NCBI GenBank assembly: GCA_041573795.1
Contig: JBFFQB010000002.1
Location: 46,749-110,748 of the forward strand
Reading direction: 5' to 3'
DNA length: 64,000 bases
Source: Anaerolineales bacterium
Lineage (GTDB): Bacteria > Chloroflexota > Anaerolineae > Anaerolineales > E44-bin32
Under the pieces are notes generated by a model. That model ran no database searches and was not told the origin of the DNA. It was given only the letters and a program-made list of their open reading frames with translations. Position numbers and translations under genes: made by a program. Shown in pieces: positions 1,838 through 20,769 of the stretch. Positions within the stretch are counted from its first letter, which is position 1, and the number at the start of each line of letters is the position of its first letter.

Positions 1838-4627
1838 ATGAATTATCGATTTCAACGAATTTGCTTCCTATTCTTGTCCTTCTGGATGAGTTTTAATGTT
1901 CAGTTTAGCGCGACCGCTCAAAGCGATCCAGCAGTTGAAATTCTCGAATCAATGAGCACTGCGGAAAAAATCGGTCAGCTGTTCCTTGTTACTTTTAATG
2001 GAAATGCTATTCGTGCAGAAGATCCAATTTACAGCCTTGTTTCAGAGCATTACATCTCAGGAGTTTTAATTTCCCCTGAGCAGGATAACTTAGTTTCATC
2101 CCCACAAACCATCGATAGTCTTCAAAATCTGATACTTGATTTACAGAAGTTAAATCTTGATCCTGGTAGCGTGGAAGAAGAGCTTCCTGAGGGAACCAGG
2201 GATCGACGCGAAGGATATCTACCGCTATTTATTGGGTTTACCTATTCTGGCGGTCAGCATGGAACAACTTCAATCCTTGAAGGGCTCTCGCCCATGGCCT
2301 CAAACATGGCCATTGGAGCAACCTGGGATGAGGAAATAGCCCAGGCAGCTGGTGAGATTCTCGGGCGGGAATTGGCAACGATCGGGATCAATCTCCTCCT
2401 TGGCCCAGCGCTTGACGTTCTAGAAAATCCACAAATGACAGATAGTACTGATCTGGGCATACAGACCTTCGGTGGCGATCCTTACTGGGTATCCGTTATG
2501 GGAAAAGCGATAATCTCAGGTATTCGCGCCGGATCTGAAGGTCAGATTGCTGTGATGGCTTCTCACTTTCCTGGATTAGGCGGAAGTGATCGACCGATAG
2601 AAGAGGAAGTTGCGACCGTTCGGAAATCGCTTGAAGAGCTAAGGCAGTTTGATCTGGCTCCCTTCTTTGCAGTAACCCAAGAAGATGAACCTGGATCTGG
2701 GGGATTGGTTCAAGGCCTTTTGACTTCACACATTCGTTACCAGGGGTTCCAGGGAAACATTCGTGCGACGACAAGGCCAATCAGTTTCGATCCTCAGGCG
2801 TTTAACTTGGTGATGTCATTAGAGCCCCTGAGCACTTGGCGAATGAATGGCGGGGTGACCTTGAGCGATTCGCTCGGATCTCGAGCAATTCGTTTATTTC
2901 GCGATCCAACAGGTCAGACCTTTAGCGCACAACTTGTCGCTCGGGATACCTTCTTGGCGGGAAACGACTTGCTTCTACTTGAGAATTTTCGAGATTCAAG
3001 CGATCCTGACGAATTAACAACAATAGTAGGGACCTTGAATTTCTTCAAGAATAAGTACACTGAAGATTCGATATTTGCCCAACGCGTTGACCAGGCCGTT
3101 CTCAGGATCATAAGATTGAAGTTATCCATCTTGGGGGATACGTTTACTACCCGAGGCGATTTTCAATCAGCCATTGATAGTACGAATGTTGGGGGAGAAC
3201 AAGAGCTCGCAAATCGGGTGGCTCAAACTGGGGCCACACTTATCAGCCCTGAGCAAGATGAGATCGAGAGCAGAACCGGGGGGATCCCACGTATTGGGGA
3301 GCGGATTGTTTTCTTAACAGATGTGCGCTATGTACGACAATGCAGCACGTGTCCACATGAAACAATCATGGATGTGAACGCATTGGAGACCGCCGTGCTG
3401 CGATTATTTGGCCCTGGCGCAGCAGGTCAGGTCGGTGGTTGGAATTTAAATTCCTATTCTTTTGCCGATATAGCAAATTATTTAGGGGAGCGAACATCTG
3501 AGGCAATGTTAGTGCCACTTGCGGCTGAAGAAGAAGTCGACCAGGCTATTCGTAATGCCGATTGGTTAGTCTTCAGCATGATGGATTCAAGAGCTGCCAT
3601 TTACGGAGCCGAAGCCTTGCAAAGTTTCCTGGATAAACGACCTGATTTGGCCCGGGATAAAAGAGTTGTGGTATTCAGCTTTGATGTTCCCTACGGTCTT
3701 GACGCGACAGAGATCAGCAAGATTGACCTGTTTTATGCACTTTATGACAGCAGCCAAGCGTTCGTAGATATGGCTGCGAAGTTGCTCTTTCAAGAACAAG
3801 CGGCCTTGGGCGCGTCCCCCGTGGGTATTCCTGGACTTGGATATGAACTTATTGAGGTGACAGCGCCCGATCCGAATCAGATCATCCAGCTAAGATTGGT
3901 TAGCTTTACGGAAGAAGGGGAGGCAACACTTGAGCCAGAAGGTTTCATGATCGGTGACGACGTTACTATTCAGACGGGGGTCATCGTGGACGCCAATGGA
4001 AATCGCGTGCCCGATCGAACACCGGTTGAGTTTCGAGTTGCCTCATCCGTCGAAGGAGAGACACCTCTTCTTTTTGAGACATCAACGGATCGTGGCGTTG
4101 CCACGACTACTGTTCCTATTGAGAAGCCTGGATTACTCACAGTAACAGTGCAATCAGGAAATGCTCGAATTTCCGAGGCGATCCAGCTTGACGCTCAAGA
4201 AGACATTGCGGCGCAGGCAGTTGTTATTTCTCCCACGCTAATTCCCACGAGCACAAGTGCGCCAACCGAAACACCACTTGTCTCAACAGCAACCCCAGCA
4301 GTGATTGACGAGCAAATCGGCGCCATCGAAGGTAGCTTTTCTTCGAGGTTGGGAGCATTGGTATTAGGGCTAATTGCCATTGCATTTGTATCGTTTCTTG
4401 GCTATATCTCAGCACAGCGAATCCAAATTGGCGAGTCAGCCCTTCGCTTTACACTGATTCCCGCCATAACTGGATTGTTGACCTATAACTACCTCGCGCT
4501 TGGCTTGCCCGGGAGCTTGGGAATCACAACGGTCCTTGGGGGGTTAGGAGTCTTTGCGGTTGTTGCTGTGGGAAGTAGCCTAGGTCTCTTGTTAGCGCAT
4601 CTATGGAATCGCACCGCTAACTCATAA
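1838..4627 (+). CDS. glycoside hydrolase family 3 (NagZ/beta-glucosidase-like) N-terminal domain protein with signal peptide and C-terminal membrane anchor
   Basis: The ORF opens at 1793 (TTG), but ATG 1838 gives a signal-like N-terminus MNYRFQRICFLFLSFWMSFNVQFSATA. GH3-like KIGQLFLV and GPALDV...GGDP motifs; the last ~110 aa form 3 hydrophobic helices. Confidence 0.75.
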   Translation: MNYRFQRICFLFLSFWMSFNVQFSATAQSDPAVEILESMSTAEKIGQLFLVTFNGNAIRAEDPIYSLVSEHYISGVLISPEQDNLVSSPQTIDSLQNLILDLQKLNLDPGSVEEELPEGTRDRREGYLPLFIGFTYSGGQHGTTSILEGLSPMASNMAIGATWDEEIAQAAGEILGRELATIGINLLLGPALDVLENPQMTDSTDLGIQTFGGDPYWVSVMGKAIISGIRAGSEGQIAVMASHFPGLGGSDRPIEEEVATVRKSLEELRQFDLAPFFAVTQEDEPGSGGLVQGLLTSHIRYQGFQGNIRATTRPISFDPQAFNLVMSLEPLSTWRMNGGVTLSDSLGSRAIRLFRDPTGQTFSAQLVARDTFLAGNDLLLLENFRDSSDPDELTTIVGTLNFFKNKYTEDSIFAQRVDQAVLRIIRLKLSILGDTFTTRGDFQSAIDSTNVGGEQELANRVAQTGATLISPEQDEIESRTGGIPRIGERIVFLTDVRYVRQCSTCPHETIMDVNALETAVLRLFGPGAAGQVGGWNLNSYSFADIANYLGERTSEAMLVPLAAEEEVDQAIRNADWLVFSMMDSRAAIYGAEALQSFLDKRPDLARDKRVVVFSFDVPYGLDATEISKIDLFYALYDSSQAFVDMAAKLLFQEQAALGASPVGIPGLGYELIEVTAPDPNQIIQLRLVSFTEEGEATLEPEGFMIGDDVTIQTGVIVDANGNRVPDRTPVEFRVASSVEGETPLLFETSTDRGVATTTVPIEKPGLLTVTVQSGNARISEAIQLDAQEDIAAQAVVISPTLIPTSTSAPTETPLVSTATPAVIDEQIGAIEGSFSSRLGALVLGLIAIAFVSFLGYISAQRIQIGESALRFTLIPAITGLLTYNYLALGLPGSLGITTVLGGLGVFAVVAVGSSLGLLLAHLWNRTANS

Positions 4628-5600
4628 ACGTTGTAAGGAACGCCAGGATGAGCAAAAGTGAGGTGGAACCCACCAGAATTCGATCTATTAGCGATAGCGA
4701 CGCTATGATAGGTTGTATTGCAGTGGCCATCTCTGAAGGAGAAGAAATTCTTGCACCACGCAGTGATTGGCTAAATGCATCCACGGAAGATGGTCGGCTA
4801 TCGGGATGAAGTGACATCGCCCAAAGGACTGCTTCTTCAATATCCAAAGGTATGAGTTGATTGATCTCGCGTGGCGGGATTAAGGTGTCCGGCCTTAGAA
4901 ATCTTTGCTTCGCTTCAGCCGGTGCCGTATTCGTCATAAGATGATATAAAGTTGCGCCGAACGAGTAGATATCTGAGCGAACATCCGTGTGCCCAGTGTC
5001 TCCGCCATATTGCTCAAGTGGTGTGTATAAGGCTGTTCCGCGCCCCTGGATAACCGTGATTGTCATTTCATCCGGCAGCATTTGTTTAACTAGACCGAAA
5101 TCGACTAACTTGAGGCGATTTTGAGGGGTAAGTTTTAGATTGCTGGGTTTTATATCGCGATGGATGACGGGAGGATCCTGCGAGTGCAAGTACGATAGCG
5201 CATCGCCGAGTTGGTTTGCCCAGGATAAGATATCCTTCAAAGGTAGAAAGTTACCTTTCCTGCGTTGACGGTCCATCAATTGCTTGAGATCATCCCCTGG
5301 GATGAAATCCATTACAAGGTAATCGGAATCGCCTTCAGAAAAAAAATCAGAGACTTTGGGTAGGGTGGGGTGGTCAAGACGGGCAAGCACGGAAGCTTCC
5401 CTATAGAATTGGTCTCTCCCTTGCTGGCGCAATTGCGCTGTGAGGTTCGGATCCTGACGGACTTGCTTGATGGCGCACTGCCGACCTTCAAGGCGATTGT
5501 CATCGGCGAGGTATATCGAACCCATTCCTCCTCGGCCAATCGTCTTTTTAAGGATATAACGTCCTTTGAGGACCTCAGGTTTTCTTTTAGAGGATGGCAA
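4617..5600 (-). CDS. Ser/Thr protein kinase (Hanks type) with C-terminal transmembrane helix
   Basis: GRGGMGSIY glycine loop, AIK lysine, HRDIKPSNL catalytic loop, DFGL, and a C-terminal hydrophobic segment LVGSTSLLLILAFLTTF. Confidence 0.9.
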   Translation of the reverse strand: MPSSKRKPEVLKGRYILKKTIGRGGMGSIYLADDNRLEGRQCAIKQVRQDPNLTAQLRQQGRDQFYREASVLARLDHPTLPKVSDFFSEGDSDYLVMDFIPGDDLKQLMDRQRRKGNFLPLKDILSWANQLGDALSYLHSQDPPVIHRDIKPSNLKLTPQNRLKLVDFGLVKQMLPDEMTITVIQGRGTALYTPLEQYGGDTGHTDVRSDIYSFGATLYHLMTNTAPAEAKQRFLRPDTLIPPREINQLIPLDIEEAVLWAMSLHPDSRPSSVDAFSQSLRGARISSPSEMATAIQPIIASLSLIDRILVGSTSLLLILAFLTTFMS

Positions 5601-5727: not shown

Positions 5728-6390
5728 ATGGTTTACAAGTCAGAAGAGATCCCAATCCTGGTTGCCCCTGACGGTGAACTGAAAGGTTCGCGCTGGGCCT
5801 TAGACAATGACGACTTTGTCATTGGCAGAGATCCTACATGTAACCTTTGTGTTCAGGATCGGCAGATATCCAGGTACCATGCACGCCTCCGCAGGACGAC
5901 TGCAGGCTATACCATTGAGGATCTAGGAAGCAAGAATGGGACCTATTTAAATGGGACTAAGCTTGAGCGGAGTGAACTCCTGCAGGATGGAGATGAGATT
6001 CAGGTAGCACTGGCAGCAAGACTCATCTTCGTTGGCTCAGAAGCTACCGTACCTCTCACAGTTGAAAACATGAATGAGCATGGCCTTGGAAGATTGCGCA
6101 TGGAAATTGAAGCTCATCGGGTATGGATTCGTGAAAAGGAAGTAGATCCACCCCTATCCCCACCTCAATTTCGGTTGCTTGAGCTCCTGTATGCTAATCC
6201 CGCGCGTGTGGTGGGACGCGATAAAATTGCTTCACATGTTTGGCCTGGTACGGAAGGGATTGGAGTGAGCGATCAAGCCATCGATGCTCTTGTCCGAAGG
6301 TTACGTGATCGCCTGGCAGATGCAGACCCCGACTTTGAATACATACTAACAGTCCGCGGTCACGGATTCCGGCTCCATAATCAAGCATAG
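5728..6390 (+). CDS. FHA domain fused to OmpR/PhoB-type winged-helix DNA-binding domain
   Basis: FHA signature FVIGRD...ISRYHARL...GSKNGTYLNG; C-terminal trans_reg_C-like LSPPQFRLLELL...DALVRRLRDRL...ILTVRGHGFRL. Confidence 0.85.
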   Translation: MVYKSEEIPILVAPDGELKGSRWALDNDDFVIGRDPTCNLCVQDRQISRYHARLRRTTAGYTIEDLGSKNGTYLNGTKLERSELLQDGDEIQVALAARLIFVGSEATVPLTVENMNEHGLGRLRMEIEAHRVWIREKEVDPPLSPPQFRLLELLYANPARVVGRDKIASHVWPGTEGIGVSDQAIDALVRRLRDRLADADPDFEYILTVRGHGFRLHNQA

Positions 6391-6413: not shown

Positions 6414-6448
6414 AAACCGGAAGGCGTAGGTGCCTTCCGGTTTGTTTT
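6414..6448. terminator. bidirectional intrinsic terminator between the FHA-wHTH gene and ssrA
   Basis: 11-bp perfect stem AAACCGGAAGG / CCTTCCGGTTT (6414-6424 and 6433-6443), 8-nt loop, followed by GTTTT on + and TTTG on -. Confidence 0.7.
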
Positions 6449-6450
6449 AG

Positions 6451-6842
6451 GTGGAGATGGCGGGATTCGAACCCGCGTCCGAAAGTTTCACTTAACAGAT
6501 ATCTACAAGCGTAGTCAATTTACTGGATTTCACCCGTTGGTCACCAATTGACAGGTGTTCCATTGGGTTAGCCACTCAGATCCGAAAATCTGCTTGATTG
6601 AAGTACGTGGCGGACTTCAGTGCAATCCTCCCATCCTGTCGTCAGTCGGTTTGCGGGGAGGATCACGCAATCCGGTGACGGATCTCCTGAGAGATCGAGC
6701 TCTACCCTAACTGCTAGGCAGCGACGGGCAGGGCCGCAAAGTCAGTGCGATTGGCACTTTTAAGTTGCGCTGATTTGACGAGTTCGGCGCCTCTCGGCTC
6801 GCAATCTGTTACATTCCACCTCCGTCGAAGCCATTCATCCCC
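6451..6842 (-). ncRNA. ssrA: tmRNA (SsrA), ~392 nt; tag reading frame encodes ANRTDFAALPVAA*
   Basis: Minus-strand 5' end GGGGATGAATGGCTTCGACGGAGG; 3' end GGATTCGAACCCGCCATCTCCACC (tRNA-Ala-like acceptor/T-arm). Internal tag ORF GCC AAT CGC ACT GAC TTT GCG GCC CTG CCC GTC GCT GCC TAG at 6714-6755. smpB lies just upstream. Confidence 0.9.
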
Positions 6843-6966
6843 TGATATGCCCAAGTATATCACGCCTCTCAACCAAATTTGCATGCGCATAGCCACAATA
6901 ATATCTATTCCACCATATTCTATTTTTCATTAAGGTAATAAAAGGCTATGCGCATTTATTATCTGC

Positions 6967-7752
6967 TCACCATTTTGCGTTCGGGAAGGTATTTACGCTC
7001 ACTTGCGATCCGATGGCTTTGTACATGACAACATCTGTAAAAGGCTCGCCCAAAATGCAATCATGGATTGCCCAGCTGCGGCCCCGTATCGAAGTTGAAA
7101 ATTCCGGTGAGCGGAATGGGGAGGAGCCATCTAAGCGAGAAATAAGCTCACCCTGATCGGTGAAACCCGAATGAATTTCTTCCATCTTGCGACGACCTTG
7201 TTGATACGCAAAACCGTAGCGCTCGAATACGATAGCGTTATGATAAAAAAGGGGATCAATAAAATACACTTCATGTCCAAGGAAATCCACAAATTCTTCA
7301 AATATACCGACAGAATATTTAAGCATCTTGAGTCCTTGGCGCACCTGGCCAGGAGCTAAACCAGCCTTCATGGCTGCACGCTCAGCCTCCAAGTTCCTAC
7401 GAAATATGCCAAACTCTGTAGGTTTTCCATCTGGCATCATATCGGTATCATATCGTGGAGCATATGGATCATTCATGACGTAGAGCAACACGTGAATTTG
7501 CCCAGTCACCGTATCGGTTAAGTGGGCATAGAGCAGAGGGTCTTGGAATCCAACATCATGCCTTAATTCCAATACCACATCAGTGCTACCTGCTTTGCAC
7601 TTGATCTGCAGTAGCTTTAGCTCAAGTAAATCTTTGATTTCATGGGGAAGTTCAAATCGTTCAAATATCTCTGGAGGAATAAAGCGGGCGTAAATCAAAG
7701 ATTTTTCTTTATCAGGAAGCTGGTTTAATGCAGCAATAGAGCGTGCACCCAT
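6967..7752 (-). CDS. hypothetical protein (261 aa), translationally coupled to smpB and immediately upstream of ssrA
   Basis: Long ORF with no competing frame; its ATG shares one base with the smpB stop (TGATG at 7750-7754); I recognise no motif. Confidence 0.7.
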   Translation of the reverse strand: MGARSIAALNQLPDKEKSLIYARFIPPEIFERFELPHEIKDLLELKLLQIKCKAGSTDVVLELRHDVGFQDPLLYAHLTDTVTGQIHVLLYVMNDPYAPRYDTDMMPDGKPTEFGIFRRNLEAERAAMKAGLAPGQVRQGLKMLKYSVGIFEEFVDFLGHEVYFIDPLFYHNAIVFERYGFAYQQGRRKMEEIHSGFTDQGELISRLDGSSPFRSPEFSTSIRGRSWAIHDCILGEPFTDVVMYKAIGSQVSVNTFPNAKW

Positions 7753-8216
7753 CAGCGACCCCTTCTCGCAATTTCACGCTCAACATCCCGCGCGGCATCT
7801 CGTTTCGAGATCTCCTTCCGCTTGTCATACTTTCGCTTACCTTTAGCTAAAGCAATTTCCAGTTTGGCCTTTCCTTCTTTGAGGTAAAGTCGTAGAGGAA
7901 CGATGGTGTAGCCCTTTTGACGAACTCGGGCAAACAAACGCTGAATTTCTCTTTTGTGCAAGAGTAAGCGCCTGCGACGACGGGGTTCATGGTTGAACTG
8001 CCCGGCTGATTCGTAAGGCGCAATGTGAGCATTAACCAGCCAAGCTTCTGACCCATCTACCTCAATATGAGCTTCCTTCAAGCTAACCTGCCCGGAGCGA
8101 ATGGACTTGATCTCTGTGCCACGCAGGCTCAAACCTGCCTCATATTTATCTTCGAGGAAATATTCATGGCTTGCTTTTCGATTGGTTGCAATCACTTTTA
8201 AGTTATCAGCATTCAT
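7752..8216 (-). CDS. smpB: SsrA-binding protein SmpB
   Basis: KVIATNRKASHEYFLEDKYEAGLSLRGTEIKSIR and basic C-terminal tail; 154 aa. Confidence 0.95.
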   Translation of the reverse strand: MNADNLKVIATNRKASHEYFLEDKYEAGLSLRGTEIKSIRSGQVSLKEAHIEVDGSEAWLVNAHIAPYESAGQFNHEPRRRRRLLLHKREIQRLFARVRQKGYTIVPLRLYLKEGKAKLEIALAKGKRKYDKRKEISKRDAARDVEREIARRGR

Positions 8217-8434: not shown

Positions 8435-9481
8435 TTGTCAGCTTCAAGCGATGTGAGAGCGACAATCCTGGTCGTGGAAGATGACCCTGCGATGTTGATC
8501 GCCTTCCAGGAAGTGTTGGAAGGCGCCGGCTATGAAGTCGTGGTTGCCGCAAACGGCCGAGATGCATTGTCCTGGCTACATACTCACACCCCAAATCTCA
8601 TCCTATCCGATATCTCCATGCCGGTAATGGATGGTTATAAATTATTTGAAGCAGTCCGTGAGATCCCCGGTGGGGCCTTGATCCCCTTTATCTTCCTTAC
8701 GGCTCGGGGGACCAGGGAAGATATTTTCGCGGGCAAGTCGCGTGGTGCCGATGACTACATAACAAAACCCGTTACAACACAGGAGCTTCTTTCGGCTGTC
8801 AACGCGAGATTACAGCGGTCAGATGAGCTCATGTTTGCTCAGCTTAAAACAGCCTATAAGGAAAGCCTCTTTGTGCTAGCAAATGCCATCGAAATGCGCG
8901 ATGCCTATACTCATGCTCATATGAAGCGCCTCAGCGACTACGCAAGGGCCTTGGCACATAAACTTGAATGGGATCAGACGCAAATGGAGGCTTTAGAATT
9001 TGGGGCTATCCTTCATGATATCGGCAAAATATATATCCCTGAAGCTGTTCTTTGTAAGGAAGGCAAATTATCTGATGACGAGTGGGACGAGATGCGGAAA
9101 CACCCAGAAGTAGGCGCCAGGATGATCCGCGACATCCCATATCTTTCCTCCGCTGTCCCCATGGTCCTTTACCACCATGAACGTTGGGATGGAACAGGCT
9201 ACCCCGAAGGCTTGCGCGGTGACATGATACCCGCCTCCGCTCGACTCCTATCCGTTGCTGACGCTTTCGATGCAATGACCTCCGACCGGCCTTACCGCGA
9301 GGCATTAAGTGCAGAGGTAGCCTATCAAGAGATCATCGACGGGTCAGGAAAGCAGTTCGATCCAGGTATGGTCAAAGCATTGAAGCAGTGTTGGGAGGTT
9401 GGAGATTTTCAACGTATCCTCAAGGGTAAGAATGGGCGCAGGACCAACGGAAAATCTAAACCACCCACAAACAGACGTTAG
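8435..9481 (+). CDS. response regulator receiver domain fused to HD-GYP phosphodiesterase domain (RpfG-like)
   Basis: REC motif ILVVEDDP...LILSDISMPVMDG; HD-GYP motifs ILHDIGK and HHERWDGTGYPEGL; TTG start in the ORF track. Confidence 0.9.
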   Translation: MSASSDVRATILVVEDDPAMLIAFQEVLEGAGYEVVVAANGRDALSWLHTHTPNLILSDISMPVMDGYKLFEAVREIPGGALIPFIFLTARGTREDIFAGKSRGADDYITKPVTTQELLSAVNARLQRSDELMFAQLKTAYKESLFVLANAIEMRDAYTHAHMKRLSDYARALAHKLEWDQTQMEALEFGAILHDIGKIYIPEAVLCKEGKLSDDEWDEMRKHPEVGARMIRDIPYLSSAVPMVLYHHERWDGTGYPEGLRGDMIPASARLLSVADAFDAMTSDRPYREALSAEVAYQEIIDGSGKQFDPGMVKALKQCWEVGDFQRILKGKNGRRTNGKSKPPTNRR

Positions 9482-18379: not shown

Positions 18380-19306
18380 TTACTGCGAAGTACTTCCTTC
18401 CCCTGATTCGTAGCTCAACATCCAGGTCTCCAGCGTTGTGCCAATGGCATTCAAACTCTCTGCTGAGACCTTGTCGATATTATCTTCCAGCGTATGCCAG
18501 TATGGATAGGTGAAGTCGATGATAAGAACTGCTGGGATTTCTGCCTGTATGAATGGAATATGATCATCTACTATGCTGGGCCCAGGTTCGTTTACGAACG
18601 CTTCAAAACCCAATTCTTGCCCCGTAGCCCAAATCGAGGAAACCAGCGCTGGATCAGAATTCCTTTCAACGGGTAGTCGTAAATCCCTATCACCGATCAT
18701 ATCCACAATGATGACAGCTTGTAGATCTTGATCAAGCTGATCAACAAAATAGCGGGAACCGACATCCCAATCCCACCCATCAATCCGCCCTTGATCCTCG
18801 GCATCAAAAAATGCAAAGACCAGATTGATTTGCTTCGAATCGATGAACACTCGGGCCAGCTCCAAAAGCACAGCCACACCGGAGGCACCGTCATTTGCGC
18901 CCGGAACGGCCAACGTGGGATTATTCAAATCGCGATCCGCGAACTTGCGTGTGTCGTAGTGTGCGCCAAGCAAGATCGGGTTCTCCCGGTCAGAGGCTGG
19001 ATGGTAGGCAATGATATTGGTCAGAAATGAACCCTTATACTCAAACGACTGTTGCTCCACGGCCCACCCCATCTCTTCAAGTTCTTCGACCAACCAGTCC
19101 TGTATTTGAATATGGCCAGTCGATCCGGGGAAGCGGGGACCGAAAGCCATTTGGTCGTTTACATATTGCAATGCTCGATCCCCTGAAAAGGTTCGTGCAA
19201 GCTCGGGTGTACTCACAGATTGGCAGGCTGAAAGCAAGGGTAGAAGGAACAAGCCTGTGCGTATAGCCTTGTTGAGATTATTGGAATATAAAAAGCGAGG
19301 GATCAT
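18380..19306 (-). CDS. M28 family metallopeptidase (aminopeptidase / glutaminyl-cyclase-like), secreted
   Basis: Signal-like N-terminus; GAHYDT, GANDGASGVAVLLELAR and FFDAEDQG metal-ligand motifs. Confidence 0.8.
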   Translation of the reverse strand: MIPRFLYSNNLNKAIRTGLFLLPLLSACQSVSTPELARTFSGDRALQYVNDQMAFGPRFPGSTGHIQIQDWLVEELEEMGWAVEQQSFEYKGSFLTNIIAYHPASDRENPILLGAHYDTRKFADRDLNNPTLAVPGANDGASGVAVLLELARVFIDSKQINLVFAFFDAEDQGRIDGWDWDVGSRYFVDQLDQDLQAVIIVDMIGDRDLRLPVERNSDPALVSSIWATGQELGFEAFVNEPGPSIVDDHIPFIQAEIPAVLIIDFTYPYWHTLEDNIDKVSAESLNAIGTTLETWMLSYESGEGSTSQ

Positions 19307-20676
19307 ATCTTATTGTGGCTATGCGCAACAAGGTCATTCTCTAAATACTGATTAAGATCTTCAAGTGCGCGTTTGGCATGAGCCGCAGCACGCTGCCGGC
19401 GATTTCGTCGAACCCCATCGTCCAACACAGGCAATAAACCCAGGTTTGCTTTCATCGGCTGGAAGGTCTCGGGCTCTGCATGGGAGACATAGTGACAGAG
19501 CGCTCCAAGCATCGTCGTTAAAGGCAACACCATTAAGGGCTCGTTATTAAGCATGCGCACAAGATTTTTCCCGGCGAGCAGCCCAGTGGCAATATTGCCG
19601 AGGTAGCCCTCCACCCCGGTTATTTGACCCGCGAAGTAAAGATCACTGCGATTTCGAAATTGCATTGTGGGATGGAGTAGATCGGGTGCCTTAAGGAAAG
19701 TATTACGATGCATTTGACCATAGCGGAAAAACCGGGCATCTTCTAAACCTGGGATCATCCGCAGTACGCGACGCTGTTCCGCATAGGTCAGATTGGTCTG
19801 GAAACCAACCAGGTTGTAAAGCGAGCCGGCAAGATCATCTTGCCGCAGTTGGACAACTGCGTAGGGGCGCTTCCCGGTCCGGGGATCCTTCAATCCTACA
19901 GGCCTCATCGGTCCATAGGCAAGCGAATCTTCACCGCGCTCTGCAATGATTTCTATCGGAAGACATCCTTCGAAGAACGTGTGGGAACCGGCTTTAACAC
20001 CTGCGTGTATAGCCGCTTCAAACTCGCGCAACGGGATTCTCTCTGCCGACTGAACCTCTCTTACAAAGCGGTAATATTCTTCTTTATTCAGCGGGCAATT
20101 GATGTAATCTCCCTTTTCCATTTCACCGCGGCCATAACGCGAGCTTCGAAACGCTATCGTCATATTGATCGTCTCATACTCAACAATTGGAGCAAGCGCA
20201 TCGAAGAAGAAAAGTTGATCTTCACCGCTCATGAGCTTAAGTGCTTCCGCAAGTGCAGGCGAGGTGAGCGGGCCTGAGGCGACGATACAAGGTCCTTCAG
20301 GTACTTCCAGGACCTCTCCGCGCACAATATTAATGCCTGGGTGGGCATCAAGAAAGCTGGTTACCCTTTGTCCGAATTGCTCCCGATCTACTGCCAGTGC
20401 GCCACCAGCCGGTACTGCAGTCTCTTCAGCGATGCGCAGCAACAATGACCCCATCACCCGAAGCTCGCTCATCAAAATACCCGATGCACGATCGGGTAAT
20501 TTTGACCCAAGAGAGTTAGAACAGACCAATTCAGCGAGTTTATCAGTTTGATGCGCGCCAGTGGCTACGGCTGGTCGCATTTCATAAAGGACGACCTCGT
20601 GCCCAGCTTCAGCCACTTGCCATGCCGCTTCGCTCCCGGCCAACCCGCCCCCGATAATTTTGACCTTGCTGCTCAT
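19303..20676 (-). CDS. trmFO: methylenetetrahydrofolate--tRNA-(uracil-5-)-methyltransferase TrmFO
   Basis: The ORF extends to 20733, but ATG 20676 gives the canonical MSSKVKIIGGGLAGSEAAWQ dinucleotide-binding start. The longer start would run over an intergenic promoter motif. Confidence 0.95.
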   Translation of the reverse strand: MSSKVKIIGGGLAGSEAAWQVAEAGHEVVLYEMRPAVATGAHQTDKLAELVCSNSLGSKLPDRASGILMSELRVMGSLLLRIAEETAVPAGGALAVDREQFGQRVTSFLDAHPGINIVRGEVLEVPEGPCIVASGPLTSPALAEALKLMSGEDQLFFFDALAPIVEYETINMTIAFRSSRYGRGEMEKGDYINCPLNKEEYYRFVREVQSAERIPLREFEAAIHAGVKAGSHTFFEGCLPIEIIAERGEDSLAYGPMRPVGLKDPRTGKRPYAVVQLRQDDLAGSLYNLVGFQTNLTYAEQRRVLRMIPGLEDARFFRYGQMHRNTFLKAPDLLHPTMQFRNRSDLYFAGQITGVEGYLGNIATGLLAGKNLVRMLNNEPLMVLPLTTMLGALCHYVSHAEPETFQPMKANLGLLPVLDDGVRRNRRQRAAAHAKRALEDLNQYLENDLVAHSHNKI

Positions 20677-20701
20677 GTGCGAGATTTTATCATGCTGAAT
20701 T

Positions 20702-20717
20702 TGGCACACATCTTGCA
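20702..20717 (+). promoter_or_regulatory. sigma-54 (-24/-12) promoter P0 upstream of rpoN
   Basis: TGGCACacatcTTGCA, exact match to TGGCAC-N5-TTGCW with GG-N10-GC spacing. It lies in the trmFO/rpoN divergent gap, 52 nt before the rpoN ATG. Confidence 0.7.
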
Positions 20718-20769
20718 ACACCTTTGCTTGCATTTTCGGATCATTGTATACTCACCTGCGAGGCGGAAC

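Follow-up and report, generated by a model that had tools for sequence, protein, structure and literature searches.

Trans-translation is the main bacterial ribosome-rescue pathway, and its core is taken to consist of just transfer-messenger RNA (tmRNA), the product of ssrA, and SmpB. To our knowledge, no dedicated acylation enzyme is encoded in an smpB operon. The classic substrates of protein acetylation are the AMP-forming acetyl- or acyl-coenzyme A (acetyl-/acyl-CoA) synthetases, and acetyl-CoA synthetase is inactivated by the acetyltransferase AcuA. In this system, AcuA acetylates the synthetase AcsA. AcuC, which is inhibited by AcuB, reverses this acetylation and acts on an elongation factor as well (PMC13039410, PMC13121692). 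In Escherichia coli, PatZ (Pka) acetylates K544 of RNase R, and the modified enzyme is captured by tmRNA-SmpB before its degradation (PMC12320835); since acetylation by PatZ thus governs capture by tmRNA-SmpB, acylation control of this machinery is biologically plausible. In Staphylococcus aureus, SmpB and RNase R carry several acetylation sites, and the esterase FphH has been hypothesized to remove acyl groups from both proteins (PMC10644348). Here, we describe orf261, a gene lying directly after smpB in a 64,000-nucleotide (nt) stretch from an Anaerolineales bacterium (GenBank assembly GCA_041573795.1, contig JBFFQB010000002.1, positions 46,749 to 110,748 of the forward strand), which we refer to as the window. 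Its protein family, which we term X, is linked to smpB throughout the sampled Anaerolineae and to Acu-type acetylation modules elsewhere, and we tentatively read it as a GNAT-like component of protein-lysine acylation circuitry.

A close parallel is the Bacillus AcuABC/AcsA system, in that X occurs elsewhere as a fusion partner of AcuA or is encoded beside AcuC, AcuB and acetyl-/acyl-CoA synthetase genes, with the same logic of placing the writer, eraser or regulator beside the substrate. However, X is itself neither AcuA (hhalign probability 0.3) nor AcuB nor AcuC, and would constitute a fourth component that is absent from the literature we searched; moreover, in Anaerolineae it is partnered by smpB with no Acu gene nearby. 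With the PatZ-RNase R pathway, it would share the principle of GNAT-dependent lysine acetylation feeding into the tmRNA-SmpB machinery, but PatZ is a large global acetyltransferase that is unlinked to smpB, and its target is RNase R rather than SmpB. In the Staphylococcus FphH cluster, smpB and ssrA likewise travel with an enzyme gene of unclear role; there, however, the extra genes precede smpB, and their products are RNase R and an esterase of the alpha/beta-hydrolase type. X is found in a different phylum, its gene follows smpB, often with translational coupling, and its predicted fold is GNAT-like, making it a putative writer rather than an eraser.

A gene directly after smpB in Anaerolineae

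The locus is organized around the following features, whose coordinates we checked against the list of open reading frames and the sequence:

7752-8216, minus strand: smpB, coding for the SsrA-binding protein (154 amino acids, isoelectric point 10.3; Pfam PF01668, 4.3e-60; NCBIfam equivalog NF003843, 7.5e-63)
6967-7752, minus strand: orf261, 261 amino acids, a member of family X (remotely GNAT-like predicted fold; no Pfam model; in Acu-type modules outside Anaerolineae)
7750-7754, minus strand: TGATG stop/start overlap of smpB and orf261 (TGA 7754-7752, ATG 7752-7750), read from the sequence

smpB, orf261 and ssrA all lie on the minus strand in that order. The identity of SmpB is secure, with scores of 202 bits (Pfam) and 210.8 bits (NCBIfam equivalog) that pass the cut-offs of the PF01668 and TIGR00086 profiles. 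At the junction (...GGTCGC TGATG GGT...), one base is common to the stop and the start, and a Shine-Dalgarno-like purine stretch (AAGGGG) precedes the orf261 start; a spacer of 124 nt (6843-6966) separates orf261 from ssrA. An initial annotation made from this sequence had already given the positions of smpB and orf261, their order and strand, the one-base overlap and the spacer exactly as we find them.

orf261 is a real and strongly conserved gene. A collection of 5.8 billion proteins contains 4662 homologues, and those listed are almost all of 258-266 amino acids, share 59-99% identity, come from Anaerolineales or Chloroflexota and are named only 'hypothetical protein'. An alignment of 35 members has a mean column identity of 72% and 66 invariant positions. 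The family is compact, since an exhaustive search of 1.84 billion cluster representatives recovers only 226 clusters; cultivated organisms encode it too, among them Deferribacter desulfuricans and the source of a genome that carries the annotation Anaerolinea thermophila. Conserved polar residues are numerous (D71, R100, R119, N120, E124, Q136, R138, Y170, E177, Y183, R214, R223, R225 and D231), and three of the six conserved arginines are invariant family-wide. The protein is mildly acidic (isoelectric point 5.8) and thus differs from the very basic SmpB. Neither orf261 nor sets of 35 and 44 members of X yield a meaningful Pfam or NCBIfam domain, in keeping with the initial annotation, which had recognized none, and PDB sequence searches with two family profiles (A1 and A2) return only noise (designed knot proteins and IpgC). 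Literature searches recovered no smpB-operon-associated protein of this kind and no description of family X or of an smpB-X operon.

For synteny, one genome per GTDB species was scanned, which returned at least 573 loci; the best 80 were examined, and all of these are from Anaerolineae-type assemblies. smpB lies directly upstream of X on the same strand in 80/80 of them, which is far from a chance arrangement; the count does not represent independent events because all the loci come from one class. Together with five more distant loci (among them L086/L087 at 45% identity, L090 at 51% and L165), there are 85 smpB-linked X loci in all. Of the 78 junctions that could be resolved, 22 show a 4-nt NTGA overlap and ~42 have a gap of at most 16 nt, the remainder reaching up to 232 nt. 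No flanking gene family is common to more than 28/80 loci, the commonest same-strand upstream neighbors being genes for an MFS transporter (in 20 loci) and for a PDZ-S41 C-terminal processing peptidase (in 15). What is conserved is the smpB-X pair rather than its neighborhood. No other feature of the locus is as well conserved as this linkage, which persists amid changing flanks and points to a functional tie of X to SmpB. ssrA follows X on the same strand in only 27/80 loci and lies on the opposite strand in one, and Rfam finds no tmRNA within ~4 kb in 17 tested loci among those without an nhmmer match to tmRNA. Hence, lying 'directly after smpB' is the rule for X, whereas lying 'between smpB and ssrA', which the initial annotation had noted, is the state of one subclade.

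The linkage to smpB is restricted to Anaerolineae-type lineages, and Acu-linked members lack it. In a neighbor-joining tree of 172 X proteins, calculated without bootstrap support, 82 smpB-linked sequences fall on one side, while the Acu-linked clades are all on the other with three smpB-linked sequences at their base; as smpB-linked sequences thus occur on both sides of the split, the linkage spans the deepest sampled divergence of the family (40-50% identity). The earlier proposal of a link to trans-translation is therefore partly supported, by the 85 loci with changing flanks, and the suggested search for recurring synteny bears out smpB-X if not the third position of ssrA. Conversely, a general location of homologues away from smpB/ssrA, which had been named as an outcome speaking against such a link, is seen for about half of the sampled family, which resides in AcuA/AcuB/AcuC and acyl-CoA synthetase neighborhoods.

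The PDZ-S41 (Tsp/Ctp-like) gene lies directly upstream of smpB-X in the 15/80 loci mentioned above (e.g., L004:2312-3535), and L086/L087 display two tandem copies of it (L086:2063-4537). In E. coli, Tsp degrades SsrA-tagged periplasmic proteins, and the peptidase may be a second functional association of the smpB-X operon.

Acu-type contexts and the predicted fold of family X

A metagenome scan seeded with distant members of X returned 80 loci. In 59/80 of these, a gene for a class-I histone deacetylase (HDAC)/AcuC-like protein, with HDLP as its best PDB match (1c3r, 9e-60), lies directly upstream of X on the same strand, and in one locus (L093) the two genes overlap by 4 nt. A divergent acuA upstream of X and an acuB downstream are found in loci L167-L172, and in L089 X directly follows an acetyl-CoA synthetase gene. 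Several cluster representatives are AcuA-X fusions of 461-489 amino acids, in which the extra N-terminal 200 residues are AcuA (PDB 2q04, 2.7e-36; 9g7f, 2.4e-32); in NC10 bacteria, such a fusion gene is followed by a gene for a CBS-ACT protein that corresponds to AcuB (PDB 9s4w, 1.8e-44). In the complete genome of D. desulfuricans SSM1 (AP011529.1), X (BAI81522.1) directly follows an AMP-binding acyl-CoA synthetase gene (L174:3269-5834), and as this organism is cultivated and its genome complete, it is convenient for experiments on X. The neighbors of a few members give no functional hint.

A protein with TPR repeats (~320 amino acids) is encoded after X in 31 AcuC-linked loci, forming an AcuC, X and TPR triad (L094-L166, e.g., L109:4874-5839), and the D. 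desulfuricans gene is placed inside a cluster of enoyl-CoA hydratase, B12-binding mutase and MeaB genes. A 155-residue gene after X in L088, which we had suspected to be smpB, proved to encode a universal stress protein. The longer homologues include no SmpB-X fusions, their extensions being AcuA, weak HEAT repeats or unassigned; two proteins of 511 amino acids (P0153 and P0319) have an N-terminal region with weak HEAT-repeat matches, and a third of 563 amino acids (P0169) has an N-terminal region of ~370 amino acids without a Pfam match, in which a 'DGNHR' stretch appears ParB-like by eye only.

The profile searches that the initial annotation had suggested came back empty, but structure prediction gave a confident model with weak GNAT-like matches. 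AlphaFold2 with a shallow alignment reached only a mediocre mean predicted local distance difference test score (pLDDT) of 78, while an alignment of 44 sequences, including members of 34-52% identity, gave a pLDDT of 94.6 and a predicted template-modeling score (pTM) of 0.90. With both models, ~47 of the top 50 Foldseek matches in the PDB are GNAT or acyl-CoA-binding domains, with probabilities up to 0.84-0.89. They include NatD, AAC(6')-Ii, PseH, the protein acetyltransferase HP0935 and spermidine acetyltransferases, as well as AtaT/TacT/KacT, a decanoyl-CoA acyltransferase and the acetyl-CoA-binding C-terminal domain of Mycobacterium tuberculosis ICL2. In the model and alignments, the strands of residues 48-94 are followed by the loop A-G-L-A-P-G-Q-V-R-x-G-L, a helix (144-157), a strand (162-165), a helix (170-178, YHNAIVFERYGF; family form YHNAIxFERYGF) and two further strands (182-185 and 242-246), an order that fits the GNAT succession beta4-alpha3-beta5-alpha4-beta6-beta7 with inserts. 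Around the presumed CoA site, the order of elements is compatible with that of the best structural matches, the GNATs NatD, AAC(6')-Ii, PseH and HP0935 and the ICL2 sensor domain, but unlike them X additionally contains a helical region at its N terminus and two inserts, a long conserved one (95-143) and a helical one (187-230). The AcuA domain that is fused to X carries R-R-R-G-L-A, unlike the X loop, and the idea of an internal duplication, with X as a copy of the AcuA domain, found no support in an hhalign comparison, which was negative. We conclude with moderate confidence that the fold of X is probably GNAT-like, without filing X as a member of the GNAT family.

ssrA and the spacer after orf261

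The features beyond orf261 are the following:

6449-6842, minus strand: ssrA, a one-piece tmRNA (match to Rfam RF00023 over model positions 1-374 of 374, scoring 145.8 bits where the gathering score is 47)
6714-6755, minus strand: tag reading frame of the tmRNA, with resume codon GCC (6755-6753), tag ANRTDFAALPVAA and stop TAG (6716-6714), from the Rfam alignment and the sequence
6854-6862, minus strand: putative ssrA promoter with extended -10 element TGATATACT, which stops 11 nt short of the 5' end of the mature tmRNA, from the spacer alignment
6944-6954, minus strand: first arm of an inverted repeat, TGCGCATAGCC, in the orf261-ssrA spacer, recognized by conservation of the arms
6884-6894, minus strand: second arm, GGCTATGCGCA, separated from the first by a 49-nt AT-rich stretch
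6414-6443, minus strand: GC-rich hairpin just 3' of the tmRNA, CCGGAAGGC-ACCTAC-GCCTTCCGG, then TTTG, seen in the sequence

The 5' end and strand of ssrA agree with the initial annotation, while its 3' end, which had been placed at 6451, lies two bases further on at 6449 according to Rfam. ARAGORN does not call the tmRNA of the window, even with relaxed (80%) thresholds. The 3' end reads ACCT, and the terminal A of the CCA is therefore not encoded. A TGnTATAAT-like block is kept in an alignment of the spacers of 22 related loci and the window, and it is because of this conservation that we propose a promoter there, as the promoter scan made no call at this site; a conserved extended -10 element just before the tmRNA 5' end argues that ssrA has its own promoter. 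ssrA is hence probably a separate transcription unit, which lies downstream of orf261 relatives in one subclade only. The hairpin that follows the tmRNA is likely to be the end of this unit, judging from the sequence; the terminator scan made no call there because the T run is short.

The arms of the inverted repeat are kept with at most one mismatch in 27/27 related loci that have ssrA downstream (e.g., L004:4786-4856), and the repeat is absent after orf261 relatives in loci without ssrA. The arms show no covariation among the related loci, the folded RNA of the spacer is not unusually stable (z = -1.4), and the scan tools called neither a terminator nor a minus-strand promoter in the spacer. 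By its sequence pattern, the repeat looks like a site for a sequence-specific binding protein rather than a structural hairpin, and the FHA + OmpR-type regulator encoded nearby (5728-6390, plus strand) is a candidate binder. Across the window, arm matches with at most one mismatch number 8, against 1.46 expected. A second copy of the repeat lies at 19258-19327 (TGCGTATAGCC ... GGCTATGCGCA, 59-nt pitch), where it overlaps two minus-strand genes, one of the TrmFO/GidA family (19303-20733) at its 3' end and one for an M28 peptidase (18380-19306) at its start.

The three-gene unit is bordered by a divergent response-regulator/HD-GYP gene (8435-9481, plus strand) and by the convergent FHA + OmpR-type gene, whose product has a winged-helix domain and beyond which a Ser/Thr protein kinase gene is found (4617-5600, minus strand). 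Homologues of the kinase and FHA + OmpR-type genes recur in 20-25 of the ssrA-adjacent loci.

Possible roles of X in ribosome rescue

We tentatively favor, at a little less than an even chance, a reading in which X belongs to the protein-lysine acylation circuitry as a divergent GNAT-like component, was recruited to the smpB operon and acts on SmpB or on a partner of SmpB. We infer acyl-CoA binding, transferase activity and the target from fold and gene context, and we view X as an acyl-CoA-dependent acylation component because this one hypothesis covers all of its gene contexts. In other phyla, X would work within Acu-type modules, next to the eraser (AcuC), the regulator (AcuB) or the substrate (Acs), or fused to AcuA; there, it might serve as a 'writer' (in the simplest case, one of a second type) or, at the least, as a partner that depends on acyl-CoA. 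In Anaerolineae, its gene is fixed immediately 3' of smpB, and as it lies directly downstream and is often translationally coupled, X is likely made together with SmpB. If the writer-beside-target logic of the Acu contexts is carried over to this class, SmpB or a partner of SmpB-tmRNA would be the likely target. By analogy, X might acylate, or bind in an acyl-CoA-dependent manner, SmpB or a co-worker of SmpB-tmRNA such as EF-Tu or RNase R, and ribosome rescue might thereby be adjusted to the cell's acetyl-CoA or energy state. A more specific version, in which X is a dedicated smpB-operon acyltransferase that acetylates SmpB (e.g., lysines of its basic C-terminal tail) or Ala-tmRNA, is conceivable but doubtful.

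Several points weigh against this proposal. The Foldseek matches are weak (best E 0.018 and 0.037 for the two models, TM at most 0.48). Motif A (Q/R-x-x-G-x-G/A) is not present in its standard form, with a spacing that does not fit in alignments judged by eye, and no sequence link to GNATs is detected by Pfam, NCBIfam, PDB profiles or hhalign against AcuA; the X profile likewise retrieves neither AcuA structure (2q04 and 9g7f) from the PDB. It is because of the non-canonical motif A and the negative profile-profile comparison with AcuA that our confidence in the GNAT-like fold is only moderate. Neither the 64-kb window nor the flanks of the 80 Anaerolineae loci contain Acu or Acs genes, and a conserved operon alone does not name a substrate. 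Finally, as AcuA is itself a writer, the AcuA-X fusion fits a regulatory or docking role as well as it fits catalysis.

An alternative that we regard as rather unlikely is that X is a non-catalytic GNAT-like sensing adaptor that binds acetyl-CoA or another anionic metabolite and then modulates its genomic partner, i.e., AcuA when fused, AcuC when adjacent and SmpB in Anaerolineae, much as AcuB acts on AcuC or as the C-terminal domain of ICL2 operates. AcuB provides the precedent for protein adaptors in the Acu system (PMC13039410, PMC13121692), the acetyl-CoA-binding domain of ICL2/Rv1916 is among the best Foldseek matches, and the lack of a canonical motif A, the fusion to a complete AcuA that already provides catalysis and the pairing of a mildly acidic X with a very basic SmpB would all suit such a role. 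Yet the many conserved polar residues form a pattern more typical of an active site, and X occurs beside presumed substrates (Acs) with no other writer nearby. It is likewise unlikely, in our estimate, that X has a housekeeping function unrelated to trans-translation, such as the acylation of a small molecule or polyamine, with its adjacency to smpB reflecting inheritance and co-expression. The location of X away from smpB in other phyla and the origin of the 80 loci in a single class are in line with this view, as are the spermidine acetyltransferases among the Foldseek matches and the existence of acetylpolyamine amidohydrolases within the HDAC family; however, the HDAC partner is of the class-I AcuC/HDLP type, and the AcuA, AcuB and Acs contexts favor protein over polyamine acetylation, and the persistence of the smpB-X pair amid changing flanks, its occurrence on both sides of the deepest split in the tree (40-50% identity) and the frequent stop/start overlaps also speak against it.

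Action on an RNA partner, whereby X would N-acetylate the alanine of Ala-tmRNA in the manner of TacT, AtaT and ItaT or use Ala-tmRNA as a donor in the manner of Fem and the L/F-transferases, appears improbable. The TacT/AtaT/KacT toxins, GNAT-fold proteins that act on aminoacyl-tRNA, are among the Foldseek matches of X, which include AtaT bound to acetyl-Met-tRNA; the six conserved arginines could contact a phosphate backbone, and X adjoins ssrA in the window. These matches, however, are weak (E 0.1-0.4) and no better than those to other GNATs, no structure of the Fem, L/F-transferase or MprF type is found in the Foldseek top 50, ssrA is adjacent in only the 27/80 loci, the protein is acidic to neutral, and the Acu and Acs contexts are unconnected with tRNA. 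Moreover, X counts among the conserved core genes and is not part of a mobile toxin-antitoxin module, and the list of open reading frames in the window holds no antitoxin-like neighbor of orf261. For these reasons, we rejected both a tRNA-acetylating toxin-antitoxin identity (TacAT, AtaRT), given the smpB/ssrA neighbors, and that of an aminoacyl-tRNA transferase (Fem, L/F-transferase or MprF type). Least probable of all is the role that the initial annotation had put forward, that of a tag-specific proteolysis adaptor (SspB-like) or tmRNA-processing factor. The site of orf261 in the window, with smpB on one side and ssrA on the other, would suit it, as would the S41 (Tsp-like) peptidase genes that precede smpB in 15 loci and in L086/L087, but X is unlike SspB, ClpS or any RNase in both sequence and fold, the protein is mildly acidic, ssrA is usually elsewhere and has a putative promoter of its own, and the relatives of X belong to acetylation modules.

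Whichever partner X has, neither part of this system is of a new kind: smpB operons that include an accessory enzyme are known, as are GNAT-like proteins within acetylation modules. It is their combination that is new, and it suggests a tie between ribosome rescue and protein acetylation in Anaerolineae. The known acetylation control of trans-translation is either indirect, through RNase R in E. coli, or hypothetical, through FphH in Staphylococcus. X, being tied to smpB class-wide and having relatives tied to AcuA, AcuC, AcuB and acyl-CoA synthetases, is a concrete candidate for the direct acylation control of ribosome rescue. If this is true, a whole bacterial class would possess a metabolic, acetyl-CoA-dependent switch on trans-translation, and elsewhere the family would be a previously unrecognized fourth component of Acu-type acetylation systems. 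Family X, which has thousands of members but neither a name nor a Pfam model, seems to supply a missing part of the lysine-acetylation modules of bacteria.

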